Below are positions 2,603 through 8,571 of a stretch of 64,000 nt of DNA, one piece after another; positions within the stretch are counted from its first letter, which is position 1, and each line of letters opens with the position of its first letter. This DNA comes from an uncultured Coriobacteriaceae bacterium (lineage in GTDB: Bacteria; Actinomycetota; Coriobacteriia; Coriobacteriales; UMGS124): NCBI GenBank assembly GCA_900539345.1, contig UQBS01000007.1, forward strand, positions 8,246 to 72,245, written 5' to 3'. Both the position numbers and the translations under genes were made by a program. The notes beneath the pieces were generated by a model. It searched no databases and was not told where the DNA came from. It was given only the letters and a program-made list of their open reading frames with translations.

Positions 2603-2731
2603 GCGAGGTCTCCTTCCAGGTGCTCAGACAATGTCCCCGCCCATGATACGTTGCCGACGCCCCAGGCCCACCGCGCATCCCCCACCCGTCACCTGTTCGA
2701 AACCAAGTACCACAGTGGCTCCGTATACAGG

Positions 2732-3013
2732 CTATATCCCAAGGAGGTCCGCATGCGTTCCAGTACGCGCGGCGGTGAGAATAAGGTTGTTGCCATCGAT
2801 TCGATAGATTAAGAGCCAATCAGGCTCGATATGGCATTCCCTATGTCCGCGATAGTTGCCAACAAGCTGATGGTCTCTCATTGCCTCCGGAAGAGCTTGG
2901 CCCGCGCAAAGGAGCCGCAGCGTTTCTTCAAGTTTGCTCATATTTCGGCCACGCTTCCTTGCGAGCTTATAGTCCTTCTTGAACTGAGCGGTGTACTCAA
3001 GCGCGTACACCAT
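2732..3013 (-). CDS. yafQ: Type II toxin, YafQ/RelE-family mRNA interferase
   Basis: A 93-aa ORF. YKLARKRGRNMSKL...HQLVGNYRGHRECHIEPDWLLIYRI...RTGTHADLLG is collinear with E. coli YafQ. It starts 3 nt after the antitoxin stop codon. Confidence 0.85.
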   Translation of the reverse strand: MVYALEYTAQFKKDYKLARKRGRNMSKLEETLRLLCAGQALPEAMRDHQLVGNYRGHRECHIEPDWLLIYRIDGNNLILTAARTGTHADLLGI

Positions 3014-3016
3014 AGC

Positions 3017-3313
3017 CTACTCCTCGTCCAGGGAAGCCATCATCGCCTCGACGCTGTCAAAAGGACCGGTAACGTTACGGCCCGTCACTGCATCGTCCAT
3101 TGCCGCAAGCGTCTCAGGCGAAAAGCCTTCAGGATTCGCTGAATCAAAGGGCAGGCCGCCTCTGCGATTGAACGCAGAAACAAACATGCGCAAGGCATTG
3201 GCCGGCGTCGTTCCAATGGCCGAACAGGTTTTGAGAAACTGCTCTTTCTCCGACTTCGTCACCTTAGTAGAAAGAGGCGCATTGACCAGTACTGCTGAGC
3301 CAGGCATTAGCAT
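3017..3313 (-). CDS. dinJ: Type II antitoxin, RelB/DinJ family
   Basis: A 98-aa ORF with an N-terminal ribbon-helix-helix-like segment (STKVTKSEKEQFLKTCSAIGTTPANALRMFVSAFNRRGGLPF), positioned immediately upstream of yafQ. Confidence 0.8.
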   Translation of the reverse strand: MLMPGSAVLVNAPLSTKVTKSEKEQFLKTCSAIGTTPANALRMFVSAFNRRGGLPFDSANPEGFSPETLAAMDDAVTGRNVTGPFDSVEAMMASLDEE

Positions 3314-3347
3314 CGCCGCCTAAAACGAACGGAAGTAATTTAGAATA

Positions 3348-3380
3348 TATGCTATTGTATCCTATTAGAAGCTAATAGCA
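3348..3380 (-). promoter_or_regulatory. Candidate operator and promoter of the dinJ-yafQ operon
   Basis: In the AT-rich stretch upstream of dinJ there are nested inverted repeats: CTATTAG (3362-3368) N3 CTAATAG (3372-3378), inside GCTATT...AATAGC. This is the typical position for antitoxin autoregulation. Confidence 0.4.
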
Positions 3381-3444
3381 ACTCTTTCCTTATAGACCAG
3401 TCAAGCCCACCAGTTTTGAAAACCTGGGATGCATCCAGTTCATG

Positions 3445-4575
3445 TCACCGACTTTTACGATGCTCGATTACGTACTCAGCAGCAGACTTCACATAAGAGG
3501 GATTGAACCACAACCAGATGTGCTCATCGAGGTAATCTTCTATGACCTTGTTGACCTCCTGTAGGCACTCAATCTTGTCGGAATCGAAGCAGAGCACCGG
3601 AAGAGGTCTGTTGGCGTGGACGTAGTTGCATCTAAAACCATACCCAATGCCCAACATGAGATATGTGAGCGGGGTGCAACGAGGGCGATTGCTGCTCGCT
3701 GTTTTACTGTCTTTGTTCTCCATTACTGAAACCCACGAGTCAATTACCCTGTTATCAAGAGGTTTCACCCCGTGCTGTCTGCAAGATGAACGAACAAACC
3801 GCGTAACGGCCTTGTTGTTGTCGTCCTTTGGCAAGAGCCAGAGGCACTTTTGTTCCTCCGGTACCTCTCTATCCAACCACATAGCCAGGCAGTCAATACA
3901 GTTGGATTCACCGTAAGGCTTGGAGGACTTGCCGAGTAGCAGCCAAACAGCATTGGCCAGGAATCCATAGATGCCGTTCAATGCCATCCAAAGATTGACG
4001 AACCGATCTGCGACATTCTCCTTGCTCTTGGCGAGAACAAGGGCCCATAGCGAGCTGAACAAACGCTCGTACGTAATCTCAGCCTCGGGCCCCAACTTGC
4101 ATTTACCCGCTTTGCTGCTATTGAGATACCAACGGACTCTATCAGGTTCGATACTTATTCCTCCAGAAGCAGCAGGCAGACGCATCGCGATGCAGTCGAG
4201 TCCACAAGGCTCGCTTTCTATAAGCATGCCTTGTGGACTCTGCCGCTGAATACAAACCCTCGCCCAATAATTCCCGTTAATCAATCGTCCATATCTAAAT
4301 GCATGAAGCGCCGACGCCTTCAGAATCCCATCGCGAATGAGAAGCCCGCGCAGCCCCAGGCGAGCCATCTCATCCGCTTCTTTCTGCTCCTCGCCAGCTG
4401 CAATGTTCGCGTCAAACGACAGGGAAGCATAGCCTTCGGAAAGCATGAGAGATATTCCGGTCATCCTACCAAATGCGTAAGGCTCATAGACATAGTCCCA
4501 ACCCGTCATCTGGAATGGTTGGACGTAAGCCTCAGCATCCCGGCAGATTTGAAATTCAACGCGACCTTTCGCCAT
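3445..4575 (-). CDS. Hypothetical protein with a C-terminal HEPN-like Rx4H motif (possible Abi/defence-type RNase; function unproven)
   Basis: A 376-aa ORF with an ATG start in the lower-GC islet. The C-terminal helical region carries FVNLWMALNGIY and GFRCNYVHANRP; the R and H codons lie at 3631-3633 and 3616-3618. It starts 33 nt downstream of the preceding gene. Confidence 0.6.
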   Translation of the reverse strand: MAKGRVEFQICRDAEAYVQPFQMTGWDYVYEPYAFGRMTGISLMLSEGYASLSFDANIAAGEEQKEADEMARLGLRGLLIRDGILKASALHAFRYGRLINGNYWARVCIQRQSPQGMLIESEPCGLDCIAMRLPAASGGISIEPDRVRWYLNSSKAGKCKLGPEAEITYERLFSSLWALVLAKSKENVADRFVNLWMALNGIYGFLANAVWLLLGKSSKPYGESNCIDCLAMWLDREVPEEQKCLWLLPKDDNNKAVTRFVRSSCRQHGVKPLDNRVIDSWVSVMENKDSKTASSNRPRCTPLTYLMLGIGYGFRCNYVHANRPLPVLCFDSDKIECLQEVNKVIEDYLDEHIWLWFNPSYVKSAAEYVIEHRKSR

Positions 4576-4608
4576 GATTGGATGGTCCGCGAATGCCGAG
4601 TCAAATCT

Positions 4609-5679
4609 TTACTTCACACTATCTGAAGACTCAGCTGAGGCAACCCATATAACAGGACGGACTCCCAGAATAGCGTCCGGCCACCACTCTCCGTCACCAG
4701 TATCCGTATTGTAGGCATCATAGAGGTGCACTACTCCCAACGTAAACCCCGCTTCATCCCCATGGATTGCCCACCACCAAGGTATATTCGCCCACTTTTC
4801 ATCATCTTTTACGCCATTTTCGCGAGCATATGAGGTCAGTTCAACTGGATAGAGCATGGGCCGATATGTATCAACATCTGAAAATGTAAGAAGCGAAACC
4901 GTATCCTTTAAGTCATAAGCAGGGCCTATAAACTTCTCGTCCTCTGCTCCTGAACCCAAGTTCTCTTCCAGTAGTTCAGACCTTTCCTCAGCCGTAAACG
5001 ATTCTTCAAGAAACACACCATTTAGCCAGGCACGAAGGGTTGATGTACACCATAGACTGAACGAATGCTCATCAAACGGTTTCCCGTCAATTACGTCCTT
5101 CGTTACCAGCAGCGTCCCTTCATCGGTCCTATCGAGAACAATCCACTCGAGAGGCTCGGCGCCGTTTGATTCGTTACCGTCCTGTTCGTAAGAGCCATAC
5201 TCAACAATGTCGCCAATCTGAGCGTTTCGGACTTTTTGGACAGGGTTGTCGTTAGCAATAGCAGTTCGGGCGGCAATAACGGCAACAACCGCAATGACAC
5301 AAATCACCAGCGCAACAATGACCATCCTGATGCGCTTGCGCTTTGCCCTATACAGCGAGACAGCGCTCTCCGTCAGCGTCTTCAATTCATTAGAATGCTC
5401 ATCATCGCTGAAACGAAGGGCGTTCTTATACGACTGATGGCCCGTATAGTCCAATGCAATCGTGCCAAGGCCTTCTTGGTTCTTGACATGAACCTCAGCC
5501 ATAAGCTGAGCCAGATATGCGTCAGCACACTCTGGGTCAATATCGAGGACGTCGGAACAACGGGCAAGAGCCTCTTGCCATTTGCCTTCTTCGAGAAGCA
5601 GGTCAATCCTTCGCAAAAGCGTATCGATGCGAGTCTTTGGGGTCGCTTCGTTTTCGGTCGTTGACATGGAGGTCCTCAT
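4609..5679 (-). CDS. TPR-like / single-TM / DUF6273-domain protein
   Basis: A 356-aa ORF. The N-terminal helical repeat (GKWQEALARCSDVLDIDPECADAYL) is followed by one TM helix (IRMVIVALVICVIAVVAVIAA). After that comes GDIVEYGSYEQ...PLEWIVLDR...LRAWLNGVFLEESFTAEE, characteristic of DUF6273. An alternative ATG lies at 5667. Confidence 0.72.
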   Translation of the reverse strand: MRTSMSTTENEATPKTRIDTLLRRIDLLLEEGKWQEALARCSDVLDIDPECADAYLAQLMAEVHVKNQEGLGTIALDYTGHQSYKNALRFSDDEHSNELKTLTESAVSLYRAKRKRIRMVIVALVICVIAVVAVIAARTAIANDNPVQKVRNAQIGDIVEYGSYEQDGNESNGAEPLEWIVLDRTDEGTLLVTKDVIDGKPFDEHSFSLWCTSTLRAWLNGVFLEESFTAEERSELLEENLGSGAEDEKFIGPAYDLKDTVSLLTFSDVDTYRPMLYPVELTSYARENGVKDDEKWANIPWWWAIHGDEAGFTLGVVHLYDAYNTDTGDGEWWPDAILGVRPVIWVASAESSDSVK

Positions 5680-5715
5680 CTCTCGGCATGGAGCCTAATC
5701 CCAAAATGCCGCTTC

Positions 5716-5742
5716 AGAGTACCCCCCCCCCTCGCTTGTCAA
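5716..5742 (-). promoter_or_regulatory. Candidate promoter with a G10 homopolymer spacer
   Basis: On the minus strand the sequence reads TTGACA (5742-5737), AGCGA, G10 (5731-5722) and TACTCT (5721-5716). The spacer is 15 nt. The site lies about 35-50 nt upstream of the 5679/5667 start codons. Confidence 0.4.
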
Positions 5743-5898
5743 CGGCTATTCGTGCTTCAGTCGCAAATAGCCCGTCAAGCATTCCAGCTTGGACTGCAAG
5801 GCATTCGCGCACGAAAGTCCACCCTCAAACGAGCAATAGGAAGCATCACACGATTGCATCTATCAGCGCATAGAGCTCTCGCAGGATTGTTCGATTAG

Positions 5899-6129
5899 TT
5901 AAGCGGCTTGCCTGGCAAGCGCGTCCACAAGTTCCTTCTCCGAGGACACAAACTCATACGGCTCATACTCGCCGTATGCGGAAGACCTGGTAATGGTTAC
6001 CAACTGCAAGTCATTTGAACAGAAGCACTCTTCAATGCGACGTTTCATTTCAACCAAGTCCTGCCCAGCGCGCGTCCGCATTGCCAGGCAACCTGTTCTA
6101 CTGAACCACATGACGACAAGGTGGCACAT
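5899..6129 (-). CDS. Small hypothetical protein (76 aa)
   Basis: The ATG at 6129 is preceded by GAGGAG with an 8-nt spacer. I recognise no family. It lies in the lower-GC islet. Confidence 0.45.
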   Translation of the reverse strand: MCHLVVMWFSRTGCLAMRTRAGQDLVEMKRRIEECFCSNDLQLVTITRSSAYGEYEPYEFVSSEKELVDALARQAA

Positions 6130-6232
6130 ATCCCAATCTCCTCTTAAAACCGACTTCCGAGCGAATTCCCCCTGACTCGTAGAACCCACGGAGCGCCTGT
6201 CCTATGGCACGGGCTCAACGCTTATCAAACGT

Positions 6233-6314
6233 GGGCCGAAGGGCTGTTCAGGCGCAGTTTTTCGGCGCGGGTTATGCGCCGAAACTGTTTGAGCACTGAA
6301 CAGCCCTTCGGCCC
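6233..6314 (+). repeat. Family-B long hairpin element, copy B2
   Basis: A perfect 19-bp inverted repeat, GGGCCGAAGGGCTGTTCAG / CTGAACAGCCCTTCGGCCC, encloses GCGCAGTTTTT-[CGGCGC gggttat GCGCCG]-AAACTGTTTGAGCA. The core is shared with copy B1. Confidence 0.8.
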
Positions 6315-6356
6315 TAGGTGCGCATGGCAATCAGAGGCCGCCTCAATCGCTTGCAC

Positions 6357-6392
6357 AAAAAAAGGGCCCGAGGATTGCTCCTCGGGCCCTTT
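6357..6392 (-). terminator. Rho-independent terminator of the TRAP operon
   Basis: GGGCCCGAGGA (6364-6374) pairs with TCCTCGGGCCC (6379-6389). On the minus strand the hairpin is followed by a T7 run. Confidence 0.75.
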
Positions 6393-6427
6393 CGTAGCCA
6401 GCGTATGCAGATTGTCGCAAGCGCTTG

Positions 6428-8410
6428 CTATGCCGCAGGCAGGGCTTCCTTCTTCTTTGCCGTGAGGTACTGGAAGGCCACGACAGCCACGGCGACGGCG
6501 ATGCCGACGACGTCGCTTGCAATGCCGGGAATCATGGCGCACAGGCCACCGACGACAAGCGCAATGCGCAGCACGGGGTTGATCTTCTTGAAGAGGTGGC
6601 CGTTGAGGGCCGCCGCGATGCAGAAGAGGCCGAGCAGGGCGGTGACGCACACGAGCGCCATCTCAAACACCGATGCGTCGCCTTCGAAGAGCATGATCGG
6701 GTTGAAGGCGAAGATGTAGGGCACGATGAACGCCGCAATGGCGAGCTTCGTGGCGTTGACGGCGGTCTTCATCGGCTTGGACTTGGCGATTGCGCTGCCG
6801 GCGTAGGCGGCCAAGGCCACGGGCGGCGTGATGTCGGCCACGATGCCGAAGTAGAAGACGAAGAAGTGCGCGGCAACCACCGGGATGCCCAGCTGAATGA
6901 GGATGGGCGCACACGTGGAGGCCATGATGCAGTAGTTGGCCGTGGTGGGAACGCCCATGCCCAGAACGATGCAGCACACCATGGTGAGCAGCAGGCCCAG
7001 GATGGTGGCGTCACCGGCGATGGCGACGATACCGTTGATGAGCACGGAGGCAAGACCGGTCAGCGTGATGCAGCCAGCGATAAGGCCGGCCATGGCGCAG
7101 GCAACGCCCACCGACACGGCGCTCTTGGCACCGGCCTGGAAAGCCTCAAAGGCCTGCTTCAGGGCGAACATCGTGGTCTCGGCAAACACCTGGCCAATCG
7201 TCTGGCCCTCGGCACGCTCATGCAGGTTGTTCAGAAAGAAGTTGACATACCCGATGAGGAAGGCAGCGAAGATGGAGATGGCGGCCGACCAAGCCATGGT
7301 GCGGGCACCCGACGCGACGAGCCACACGAGCAGCACAAGCGGCAGCAGCAGGTAGCAGTTCTTGCCCAGATAGCGCCACGTGGGCAGGTCCTCACGCGAA
7401 AGGCCCTTGAGCCCGAGCTTCTTGGCCTCGAGGTGCACGGTGATGAAAATGCCGGCGAAGTACAGCACGGCGGGCAGGATGGCCTTGGCAGCCACGTCGA
7501 TGTAGGGAATGCCCATGTACTCGGCCATGAGGAATGCCGCCGCACCCATGATGGGGGGCATGATCTGGCCACCGGTGGAAGATGCTGCCTCAACGGCGCC
7601 GGCGAACTCGGGCTTGAAGCCGGTCTTCTTCATCATGGGGATGGTGACGGAGCCCGTGGTGACGGTGTTGCCCACCGAGGAGCCGCTCACCATGCCGCAC
7701 AGGGCGCTCGAGATGACAGCCACCTTTGCAGGGCCGCCGCTCGACCAGCCAGCAAGGCGGTTGGCCAGGGAGATGAAGAAGTTGGCGATGCCCGTGCGCT
7801 CCAGGAACGCGCCGAAGATGATGAAGAGCACGATGTAGGTGTAGCACACGTTGATGGGCGTGCCGATGACGCCGTTCACGCTGTAGAACAGGCGGCTGAT
7901 GATGTACTGGAACATCTTGAACGGGTCGGAGTTGTAGCCGCTGCGCCAAACCACGACGTAGATGAGCAGGGCGGCAACCACGATGAGAATCGGGATACCC
8001 ACGCAACGACGGCACAGCTCGAACAGCACGAGAATGCCCACGACGCCCATGACGATGAGCGGCAAGTCGATGCGGTTGTTCATCATGATGATGTCGTAGG
8101 CGTTGAACGCAAAGTAGAAGAACGAGCCTGCGCCCAGCACCATGAGAACGATGTCGTACCACGGGATGCGGTTGGGCTTGACGTGGTGCTTGTCGGCCGG
8201 GTAAATCAAGAAGCCGATGATAATGATGCAACCCAGGAACAGCGACAGGCGCGTCTCGGGCAACACGGTGCTGAAGAGCGTCATGTACAGGCAGTACACG
8301 GAGAACGCCGCCATGATGCAGCCGACAATGGTCTTGGGGATGCCCTGCCACACGCGTGTATTCGACTCGCGGTCGTACTTCTTCATCACCGCGTCGACAT
8401 CAGTCTGCAT
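6428..8410 (-). CDS. TRAP transporter fused (DctQ-DctM type, 4TM/12TM) permease, TAXI class
   Basis: A large polytopic ORF (689 aa in the track) with the architecture of TAXI-associated fused permeases. The likely ATG at 8410 (MQTDVDAVMKKYDRESNTR) follows GAGGAA. Confidence 0.88.
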   Translation of the reverse strand: MQTDVDAVMKKYDRESNTRVWQGIPKTIVGCIMAAFSVYCLYMTLFSTVLPETRLSLFLGCIIIIGFLIYPADKHHVKPNRIPWYDIVLMVLGAGSFFYFAFNAYDIIMMNNRIDLPLIVMGVVGILVLFELCRRCVGIPILIVVAALLIYVVVWRSGYNSDPFKMFQYIISRLFYSVNGVIGTPINVCYTYIVLFIIFGAFLERTGIANFFISLANRLAGWSSGGPAKVAVISSALCGMVSGSSVGNTVTTGSVTIPMMKKTGFKPEFAGAVEAASSTGGQIMPPIMGAAAFLMAEYMGIPYIDVAAKAILPAVLYFAGIFITVHLEAKKLGLKGLSREDLPTWRYLGKNCYLLLPLVLLVWLVASGARTMAWSAAISIFAAFLIGYVNFFLNNLHERAEGQTIGQVFAETTMFALKQAFEAFQAGAKSAVSVGVACAMAGLIAGCITLTGLASVLINGIVAIAGDATILGLLLTMVCCIVLGMGVPTTANYCIMASTCAPILIQLGIPVVAAHFFVFYFGIVADITPPVALAAYAGSAIAKSKPMKTAVNATKLAIAAFIVPYIFAFNPIMLFEGDASVFEMALVCVTALLGLFCIAAALNGHLFKKINPVLRIALVVGGLCAMIPGIASDVVGIAVAVAVVAFQYLTAKKKEALPAA

Positions 8411-8571
8411 TTCCTCGGCAGGAAGGGCGGTCTGGCTGGAATCTGCCACTTGTTTACACCTCCAAGAGTGTGAAAACGGATAGGTCACAAAACGCAAGGG
8501 AAGCCGCTGCAGTCAGGAGCAACCGCAGCGACTTCCGATTGTAGCGCAAGGAGAATTGGGAGAAGGCGAAG

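Follow-up and report, generated by a model that had tools for sequence, protein, structure and literature searches.

We examined a pair of adjacent genes in a 64-kb stretch of DNA (the window: 64,000 nucleotides of contig UQBS01000007.1, assembly GCA_900539345.1) from an uncultured Coriobacteriaceae bacterium of the human gut. One gene encodes a membrane protein with TPR and DUF6273 domains, the other a soluble protein of 376 amino acids (aa). An earlier note on this DNA had proposed that the two form an uncharacterised defence or abortive-infection module in which the 376-aa protein is HEPN-like. Both genes lie on the minus strand, as do icd (1400-2602), the toxin-antitoxin (TA) genes yafQ and dinJ/relB, and a small open reading frame (ORF) in the same region. 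The insertion that holds the pair, and the features of the two genes, are as follows (all positions are those of the window).

2724..6359, no strand: low-G+C, strain-variable insertion of 3,636 bp, from the dctM terminator to the icd promoter region (G+C fraction 0.50 against 0.63).
4609..5679, minus: partner gene, 356 aa; cytoplasmic TPR, one transmembrane (TM) helix and extracellular DUF6273 domain.
5365..5652, minus: cytoplasmic TPR segment, partner aa 10-105; homologous to the mid-TPR (aa ~300-420) of Clostridial Zn-ribbon-TPR-TIR membrane proteins (blastp 3e-14, phmmer 1e-15 to 5e-19, and tblastn).
5248..5340, minus: single TM helix, partner aa 114-144, from a hydropathy scan, with the basic stretch RAKRKRIR just before it.
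4639..5118, minus: extracellular DUF6273 domain, partner aa 188-347 (Pfam PF19789, 34.5 bits against a gathering score of 23.5).
3445..4575, minus: 376-aa soluble protein without a TM segment; divergent representative of a family not yet described, with about 220 clusters at 50% identity.
3540..4290, minus: divergent recombination tract within the 376-aa gene, about 750 bp long; its nucleotide sequence is 78-88% identical to contig L001 (the rest of the islet is about 99% identical).

A Gene Pair in a Strain-Variable Insertion

The partner ORF ends 33 nt ahead of the start of the 376-aa ORF, and the two constitute a bicistronic pair with the partner first; the coordinates and the TPR-TM-DUF6273 layout agree with those of the earlier note. 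The real start of the partner is likely M5 at 5667, which would give a protein of 352 aa. Pfam places its TPR matches at aa 20-68. Since the basic stretch RAKRKRIR lies ahead of the TM helix, the N-terminus is predicted to be inside the cell and the DUF6273 domain outside. In phage proteins targeted by diversity-generating retroelements (DGRs), DUF6273 adopts a C-type-lectin-like ligand-binding (receptor-binding) fold (PMC10743442; bioRxiv 10.1101/2024.10.15.618418). The window partner resembles these gut-phage DUF6273 receptor-binding proteins ("tentaclins") in its extracellular domain and differs from them in being a cellular single-pass membrane protein. The possibility that its DUF6273 domain is itself a DGR target was rejected, because template/variable repeats were found neither in the window nor in the cassette loci described below (reverse transcriptase was not searched for). 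Apart from a 54-nt palindromic element, no repeats of the islet occur elsewhere in the window.

Horizontal acquisition of the islet by this high-G+C bacterium is strongly supported, because the empty site was found and the junctions could be mapped. In eight of eight contigs with the commonest Icd allele (L034-L041; related contigs and loci carry L numbers), dctM is followed directly by icd at a distance of about 200 bp, and blastn of one of them (L034) against the window places the junctions at 2723/2724 and 6359/6360. The composition agrees: region 3314-6232 has 50.4% G+C against a whole-window mean of 62.8% and about 60-62% in the flanks, and it is the lowest-GC 2.9-kb stretch within the 64 kb, about 3.8 standard deviations under the mean. 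The G+C at third codon positions (GC3) is 0.50-0.62 in the islet genes compared with 0.83-0.87 in the flanking icd, dctM, and dctP. The acquisition proposed in the earlier note is borne out by the empty site, the junctions, and the depressed GC and GC3. Its figures of about 45% against 63% G+C caught a real contrast and overstated its size, as 44-45% is reached by two 300-nt windows only. Its picture of an islet beside a TA pair must be corrected: the content of islet 2724-6359 is yafQ-dinJ, the bicistronic pair, and a strain-variable DUF6718 ORF. No integrase or transposase was found inside these limits. On the far side from icd, the islet is bordered by the TRAP (tripartite ATP-independent periplasmic) transporter genes dctM (6428-8497) and dctP, and the gene content nearby includes TRAP transporters, TAT (twin-arginine translocation)-dependent molybdopterin oxidoreductases, and GerE/LuxR regulators. 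Together with the high G+C, these genes would suit an Eggerthellaceae-like member of the Coriobacteriia.

The gene order DUF6273, 376-aa gene, relB, yafQ, icd is common to the window and three related contigs (L001-L003). Relative to L001, synonymous divergence (dS) is 0.12-0.15 in the flanking core genes and about 0.014, ten-fold less, in yafQ, dinJ, and the partner. Within the 376-aa gene, tract 3540-4290 has a dS of 0.3-0.7, and its motif-bearing segments show ratios of nonsynonymous to synonymous divergence (dN/dS) of 0.03-0.06. These comparisons indicate that the islet has recently been shared between strains, that the tract is an imported allele segment, and that the 376-aa gene exchanges alleles. 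Such exchange is common among conflict genes and is no proof of a conflict role for this one. For the 376-aa gene, dN/dS is estimated at 0.16-0.21, and the partner has 0.25; against the more distant L003 (dS ~0.9), the values are 0.16 and 0.25, respectively. Both genes are under purifying selection.

A Protein Family with an Invariant Signature

The 376-aa protein found no match in Pfam, NCBIfam, PADLOC, or PDB sequence searches. A word-indexed protein search returned only four orthologues (75-96% identity) and, with an 86-sequence profile, five proteins only; N-terminal patterns from the window clade, scanned across genome contigs, returned nothing. An exhaustive hidden Markov model search with the alignment of close orthologues recovered 220 representatives at E ≤ 1e-3, 91 of them at E ≤ 1e-10. 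Most are 330-370 aa long, and they match chiefly over residues 160-365. A Pfam scan of 86 members gave no consistent family, and the one family member that bears a name is "hypothetical" at NCBI. As a side observation, one of the 86 matches the PADLOC candidate-system protein PDC-M03B at 6e-8; a second PDC-M03B model matches one member at 8.8e-6, possibly the same protein.

As the earlier note had stated, the protein contains RFVNLWMALNGIY and GFRCNYVHANRP. In a sequence of this composition, one Rx4-6H motif is expected by chance, and two are observed. What gives the motif meaning is not its presence but that all 86 of the diverse relatives aligned have both R315 and H320. With a mean column identity of 19%, the alignment of these 86 members leaves only W196, Y312, R315, C316, and H320 invariant; K86, F192, L195, N200, Y203, and N342 are conserved in at least 90% of them. 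The window copy keeps every family-invariant residue.

AlphaFold with a 5-sequence alignment gave an unusable model (predicted local distance difference test, pLDDT, of 31). The prediction repeated with 86 sequences (AF2) reached a pLDDT of 82.7 and a predicted template modelling score (pTM) of 0.86. This model reproduces the division into a beta-rich N-terminal and a helical C-terminal half that had been read from the sequence:

4081..4575, minus: N-terminal mixed beta/alpha domain, aa 1-165; beta-rich, with D82 and K86 conserved on the long helix 77-95 (AF2, conservation).
3448..4080, minus: C-terminal all-helical, HEPN-like domain, aa 166-376; AF2 helices 170-184, 188-213, 302-318, and 332-357.
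3967..4005, minus: helix-2 motif R-F-x-x-L-W-M-A-x-N-G-x-Y, aa 191-203; W196 invariant, N200 and Y203 nearly so.
3616..3642, minus: Y312-x2-R315-C316-x3-H320 signature; all four residues invariant in 86/86 members.

The N-terminal domain may serve in sensing or regulation. In the C-terminal domain, a helical insert (214-301) separates core helices 2 and 3; it is variable, poorly conserved, and modelled with lower confidence.

A Candidate HEPN Domain

The HEPN core consists of two helical hairpins, often with an insert between helices 2 and 3, and the residue after the Arg of its motif is typically, not universally, a polar N, D, or H (Anantharaman et al., PMC3710099). The 376-aa family agrees with this description in its conserved R315-x4-H320 motif (86/86) and, at the level of secondary structure only, in the helix-1/2 hairpin, the insert between helices 2 and 3, and the position of the motif where helix 3 ends and the loop starts. 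In the model, R315 stands near the end of helix 302-318, H320 stands at the start of the next loop, and helix 332-357 lies beyond. In addition, hhalign of the family C-terminal profile against the Abi_2 alignment sets LWMAmNG on PLWVAmNA (P 7e-4, probability 26%; helix-2 motif only), such that W196 and N200 fall on the PLWVAxNA helix-2 motif of Abi_2.

Several results speak against this assignment. The residue after the Arg is an invariant cysteine, Cys316, instead of N, D, or H. Foldseek found no match for the full model in PDB or BFVD (best E 0.3-0.4). In Pfam hmmscan, neither the 86 members nor the consensus sequences matched a HEPN family, save for one HEPN_Swt1 at E 0.03, and the consensus scan that included an insert-deleted construct gave none. 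The hhalign comparison with Abi_2, whether run full, greedy, or insert-deleted, did not extend to the Rx4H helix. A search of the profile against PDB sequences returned noise only, an MR1 match. A RecG_wedge match in the consensus scan (E 0.001-0.005) falls on the last helix and was likewise judged to be noise.

The likeness to HEPN is plausible on the strength of motif and secondary-structure topology. We regard a HEPN fold as the most likely reading of the C-terminal domain and hold it with somewhat more belief than doubt. Of the original HEPN proposal, the invariance of the motif and the topology have stood, whereas a fold or profile match did not materialise: Foldseek and Pfam gave none, and hhalign reached the helix-2 motif only. 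The combination of AlphaFold and Foldseek by which the note had hoped to recognise a HEPN bundle gave a confident model with HEPN-like topology but no fold match in PDB or BFVD.

It is improbable, though worth stating, that the domain is something other than a HEPN RNase. Cys316 and His320, together with Tyr312, Trp196, and Asn200, would then form another active or metal site, for example that of a thiol-dependent hydrolase or a Zn site, and the protein could still serve as effector or adaptor of the cassette described below. A C-x3-H arrangement on one helical face is able to bind metal. The invariance of the cysteine in 86/86 members is atypical for HEPN and would suit such a site, as would the outcome of the Pfam, PDB, Foldseek, and hhalign searches, which gave no HEPN match beyond one short motif. 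On the other hand, Arg315 is just as invariant, and the invariant residues include only two potential metal ligands. The R-x4-H spacing, its place at the end of a helix and the start of a loop, the hairpin and insert layout, and the Abi_2-like LW-A-N motif also suit HEPN. If the HEPN reading is wrong, the family still has an uncharacterised, strongly constrained enzyme-like domain that is tied to TIR biology. If it is right, the protein defines a new family that comprises 220 clusters or more at 50% identity, carries a HEPN-like signature with an unusual invariant Cys, and has no relative in Pfam, NCBIfam, PADLOC, or PDB.

Among known HEPN proteins, the Abi-type effectors (Abi_2/AbiD/AbiF, PF07751; PrrC/RloC) share with the family a helical C-terminal domain, an invariant R-x4-H placed where a helix ends and with a small residue after it, the upstream LW-A-N helix motif that aligns with PLWVAxNA of Abi_2, and the occurrence as single genes scattered in variable regions. 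One family member overlaps the 3' end of hsdS, which recalls the position of prrC in hsd loci; genes for the PrrC/RloC anticodon nucleases are embedded in type I restriction-modification (R-M) loci. The family differs from the Abi-type effectors in that it shows no significant profile match to them, has Cys rather than N, D, or H after the Arg, carries an insert of about 90 residues between core helices as well as a distinct N-terminal beta/alpha domain, and is often operonic with membrane TIR/TPR proteins. A second comparison is offered by Csm6/Csx1 (CARF/SAVED-HEPN proteins of type III CRISPR systems), which also join an N-terminal non-catalytic domain to a C-terminal helical domain with R-x4-6-H. 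By this analogy, the two-domain layout would suit a signal-activated RNase. Unlike Csm6/Csx1, the family has an N-terminal domain modelled as a beta-meander with helices, no obvious Rossmann-like CARF, no match in sequence or fold, and neither a cyclase nor a CRISPR context.

A Larger Cassette in Clostridia

Pattern scans for the family recovered 10 loci in GTDB genomes and another 14 in metagenomes, and every one comes from gut or rumen Clostridia or Bacilli; exact-protein look-ups added more. ORFs were called in every locus and compared by phmmer with modules derived from the neighbouring genes. This procedure revealed a recurrent cassette, with which the Pfam annotation agrees. Encoded on the same strand are an SPFH protein, a polytopic membrane protein, one to five TIR paralogs, and the family member. 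The SPFH protein belongs to Band_7_1 and often ends in zinc ribbons; the polytopic membrane protein has 226-239 aa and no Pfam family. The TIR paralogs begin at the N-terminus with a zinc ribbon and continue with TPR, TIR_2, and another TPR; then follow a coiled coil, a single TM helix, and, outside the cell, a domain of either DUF6273 or RCC1 repeats. The single TM helix is present in 16 of the 19 TIR proteins, and the TIR domains contain an invariant VWVKNEWSR motif with a catalytic-type glutamate. The genes occur in two orders, SPFH, polytopic, TIR, family or TIR, family, SPFH, polytopic. Both orders keep TIR next to family and SPFH next to polytopic, with gaps that range from overlap to about 100 nt. 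The cassette, or the part of it that is visible on short contigs, was found in L004, L006, L008, L013, L018/19, L021, L022, L025/26, L028/29, and L030.

In the window clade, and outside it in about 10 independent lineages of Clostridia, the family gene lies directly downstream of a partner homologue on the same strand. Among independent loci, about half have the family gene right after the partner homologue. The earlier note had staked its proposal on the two genes co-occurring in other genomes, and this linkage does exist.

The window partner aligns to the TIR proteins from about residue 300 on, with E-values up to 5e-19 for the TPR and 8e-25 for DUF6273; it is therefore a short form of these proteins that lacks TIR and zinc ribbon. 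A TIR-less TPR variant also occurs in one Clostridial cassette (L021). Because the mid-TPR is the one element always kept beside the family gene, we consider it the best candidate for a contact point with the family protein. To judge by these alignments, the window pair is a reduced form of the larger Clostridial TIR/SPFH cassette. Within the reach of Pfam, NCBIfam, PADLOC, and the searchable literature, the cassette itself appears to be undescribed: a literature search on DUF6273, PDC-M03, and TIR+SPFH+HEPN found no description of it.

Three of the cassette loci contain additional features. The richest version is L013 (3610-20270), where five TIR paralogs form one array (two with RCC1, two with DUF6273, one without ectodomain) around a single family gene, an SPFH-Zn-ribbon gene, and a polytopic-protein gene. 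In L022, the first TIR paralog is separated from the polytopic membrane protein by a gene for a DUF2971 protein (2941-3711, E 3e-5). L006 has a 230-aa ORF (6132-6824) between two TIR paralogs, with weak matches to HEPN pEK499_p136 (E 6e-4) and PADLOC CARF_HEPN (E 4e-3); this ORF may be a second, unrelated HEPN-like gene in one cassette.

Proposed Function

The reading that we find most likely, though we are evenly divided on it, is that the window pair is a conflict module reduced to a membrane sensor and a HEPN-like effector. If it is, the DUF6273 (lectin) ectodomain, or RCC1 (propeller) in some relatives, would sense an extracellular or envelope-associated cue, and the signal would cross the membrane to the cytoplasmic TPR region. 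In full cassettes, the relay could also run via TIR NADase chemistry on a YdjI-like SPFH platform. The soluble 376-aa protein would thereby be activated, and its HEPN-like domain would cleave RNA. This cleavage would lead to growth arrest, a response of the abortive-infection or conflict type. Observed are the islet, the family with its invariant motif, the linkage of the genes, and purifying selection, and the topology is predicted; in this scheme, we infer the HEPN fold, the RNase activity, the direction of signalling, and the anti-phage role.

It is genomic context that points to a possible role of the pair and the cassette in defence. The family gene stands alone in about nine lineages, and in several of these its neighbours are of a conflict or mobile type. 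The gene overlaps the 3' end of hsdS (Methylase_S, type I R-M) by 23 nt in two loci (L043, 2356-3378; L044, 2017-3039); it lies downstream of hsdR, SLATT_4 and SMODS, and KilA-N in L005, adjoins Abi_2, an nSTAND6/TPR NTPase, and a serine recombinase in L017, stands between smpB and a Phd/YefM pair in L007, and follows DUF2326 in L009. Other solo members are flanked by IS66 and rve transposases, a MobA/MobL relaxase, or an RHS toxin. In the cassette locus L006, AAA_21 and RloB genes are located directly downstream of the family gene. The G+C content of the family gene is far below that of its surroundings in nearly all loci.

Several findings count against a conflict module. About half of the family members have no partner, and some of these lie among housekeeping genes. 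Searches of IMG/VR, of the INPHARED phages, and of the PLSDB plasmids did not turn up the family. PADLOC gave no match for five window proteins and called no system for the cassette proteins, where only weak TIR-domain matches appeared (PDC-S66 at 1e-6, ThsB at 4e-4). On this point, the earlier note was right that no named defence system has this composition. Finally, tblastn found no homologues of the TIR, SPFH, or polytopic proteins anywhere in the 64-kb window, and the window pair, lacking all three, may do less than the full cassette or something else.

Of the named defence systems, Thoeris (one ThsA with one or several ThsB) provides a close parallel to the multiple TIR genes, in that a single family gene accompanies one to five TIR paralogs (L006, L013, L022) and the cassette TIR region weakly matches the ThsB model (4e-4). 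The differences are considerable. The 376-aa protein and its relatives have no Pfam or PADLOC match to the SIR2, SLOG, or Macro domains of ThsA-type proteins. The cassette TIR proteins are single-pass membrane proteins with DUF6273/RCC1 ectodomains, Zn ribbon, and TPR; SPFH and polytopic membrane proteins are added; and PADLOC calls no Thoeris. The window holds no TIR at all, and TIR adjacency is confined to the Clostridial cassette loci.

A bolder reading, which we consider doubtful, extends the conflict module to the whole cassette. It would be an unrecognised immune or conflict system built like an animal Toll-like receptor, with swappable DUF6273/RCC1 ectodomains, TIR domains in an SPFH microdomain, and HEPN-like RNases. 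The ectodomains would detect a phage, cell, or glycan from outside, and the RNases would be turned on via a TIR-made nucleotide or by direct TPR contact. If true, a conserved and unreported cassette of gut and rumen Clostridia joins membrane TIR sensors, an SPFH scaffold, and a putative nuclease. The TIR defence systems known to us sense infection inside the cell; sensing at the surface would therefore be conceptually new.

A role in sensing envelope or membrane stress rather than in immunity is somewhat less probable still. The cassette would then be an elaborated SPFH membrane complex similar to YdjGHI/SamGHI, the 376-aa protein would be its cytoplasmic output (for example, an RNA-processing or regulatory factor), and the window pair would be a surface-sensing remnant resembling a two-component system. 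In Bacillus subtilis, YdjI is a soluble SPFH protein with a Zn finger, YdjH a membrane protein, and YdjG a Zn-ribbon TM protein (PMC8581546; bioRxiv 10.1101/2021.02.15.431232). The cassette mirrors this architecture: its SPFH protein (Band_7_1) has zinc ribbons at the C-terminus, a polytopic protein is present, and the membrane proteins start with a Zn ribbon. Some family members do lie among housekeeping or cell-surface genes (epimerases, sortase). However, this resemblance to PspA-YdjGHI (SamGHI) concerns architecture only. The cassettes showed no PspA gene, TIR, TPR, and large ectodomains are found on their YdjG-like proteins, and the HEPN-like gene is an addition; in the window, SPFH, polytopic protein, and Zn ribbon are all absent. 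A TIR domain that conserves a catalytic-type Glu is a typical feature of conflict systems. The multi-paralog arrays with swapped ectodomains, the R-M, CBASS-like (cyclic-oligonucleotide-based anti-phage signalling), and Abi neighbourhoods, the strain-variable presence, the low GC relative to the host locus, and the allele recombination also favour a conflict role. Two unrelated solo members (L042, 5003-6001; L045, 9126-10118) each adjoin an NAD-dependent sugar epimerase/dehydratase gene in differing orientations, which could be coincidence or a shared insertion hot spot.

It is very improbable that the window pair no longer functions and is what remained of a cassette after TIR, SPFH, and polytopic protein were lost on transfer to a high-GC host: the TIR, SPFH, and p236 genes are indeed absent from the 64-kb window, and the partner begins exactly at the start of the mid-TPR of the TIR proteins, but three lineages, diverged to dS 0.8-0.9, keep both ORFs intact at dN/dS of 0.16-0.25, all family-invariant residues are kept, the motif segments have dN/dS of 0.03-0.06, and TIR-less partner variants also exist in Clostridia (L021). 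A decayed remnant was rejected on dN/dS.

If the pair does work as a membrane sensor with a HEPN-like effector, a two-gene core of TPR-TM-lectin and HEPN-like protein can enter a distant high-GC host and stay there under purifying selection. Such a core would also be a minimal, tractable construct for studying communication between sensor and effector.

Other Elements of the Insertion

The remaining features of the islet are as follows.

2732..3013, minus: yafQ, RelE-family toxin gene, 93 aa (Pfam YafQ_toxin E 1.9e-35; NCBIfam RelE_StbE E 5.5e-27).
3017..3313, minus: dinJ/relB antitoxin gene, 98 aa (Pfam RelB E 3.7e-7; TIGR02384 46.6 bits against a cut-off of 45.65).
3354..3381, minus: promoter-like site upstream of dinJ-yafQ (TTGCTA, 16 nt, TACAAT), from a consensus scan.
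5899..6129, minus: 76-aa DUF6718 ORF (E 5e-25) with its own Shine-Dalgarno sequence AAGAGGAG.
6233..6314, minus: structured palindromic element at the upstream end of the islet, with a second copy at 1296-1378.

The two small TA genes are neighbours with a 3-nt gap, and both score above the thresholds of their Pfam and NCBIfam models, as expected for a type II YafQ-DinJ (RelE/RelB) pair; the identification given earlier is confirmed. The site at 3354..3381 weakly suggests that the TA pair is transcribed apart from the upstream gene pair, as promoter-like sites in the region are no more numerous than expected from shuffled sequences.

The 76-aa ORF that the earlier note had placed upstream of the pair is real, to judge by the DUF6718 match and the Shine-Dalgarno sequence. 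Its frame spans 5899-6189, and the ATG at 6129 behind AAGAGGAG, which gives 76 aa, is almost certainly the true start. The ORF was considered as a third component of the module and rejected, because it is a strain-specific indel that is missing from L001 and absent from all Clostridial loci; it probably lies outside the module. In L001, a contig otherwise 95-99% identical, segment 5787-6421 (635 bp), which holds this ORF, is swapped for 186 bp.

The palindromic element is about 85 nt long. Both copies share the core GCTCAAACAGTTTCGSCGC ... GAAAAACTGCGC with an inner hairpin, and their 19-nt outer arms differ in sequence between copies while complementarity is kept within each copy. Only these two copies exist in the 64 kb (0.04 expected by chance); they have the same orientation and bracket icd and the islet. 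The element also occurs in L003 at 3650-3709. It could be REP (repetitive extragenic palindromic)-like, terminator-like, or a small RNA (sRNA). A sub-threshold Rfam match to the sRNA family BjrC68 at 6354-6439 on the minus strand (27.5 bits, gathering score 39, E 0.001) coincides with the GC-rich hairpin and T-run that end dctM, and most likely it reflects nothing more than this terminator.

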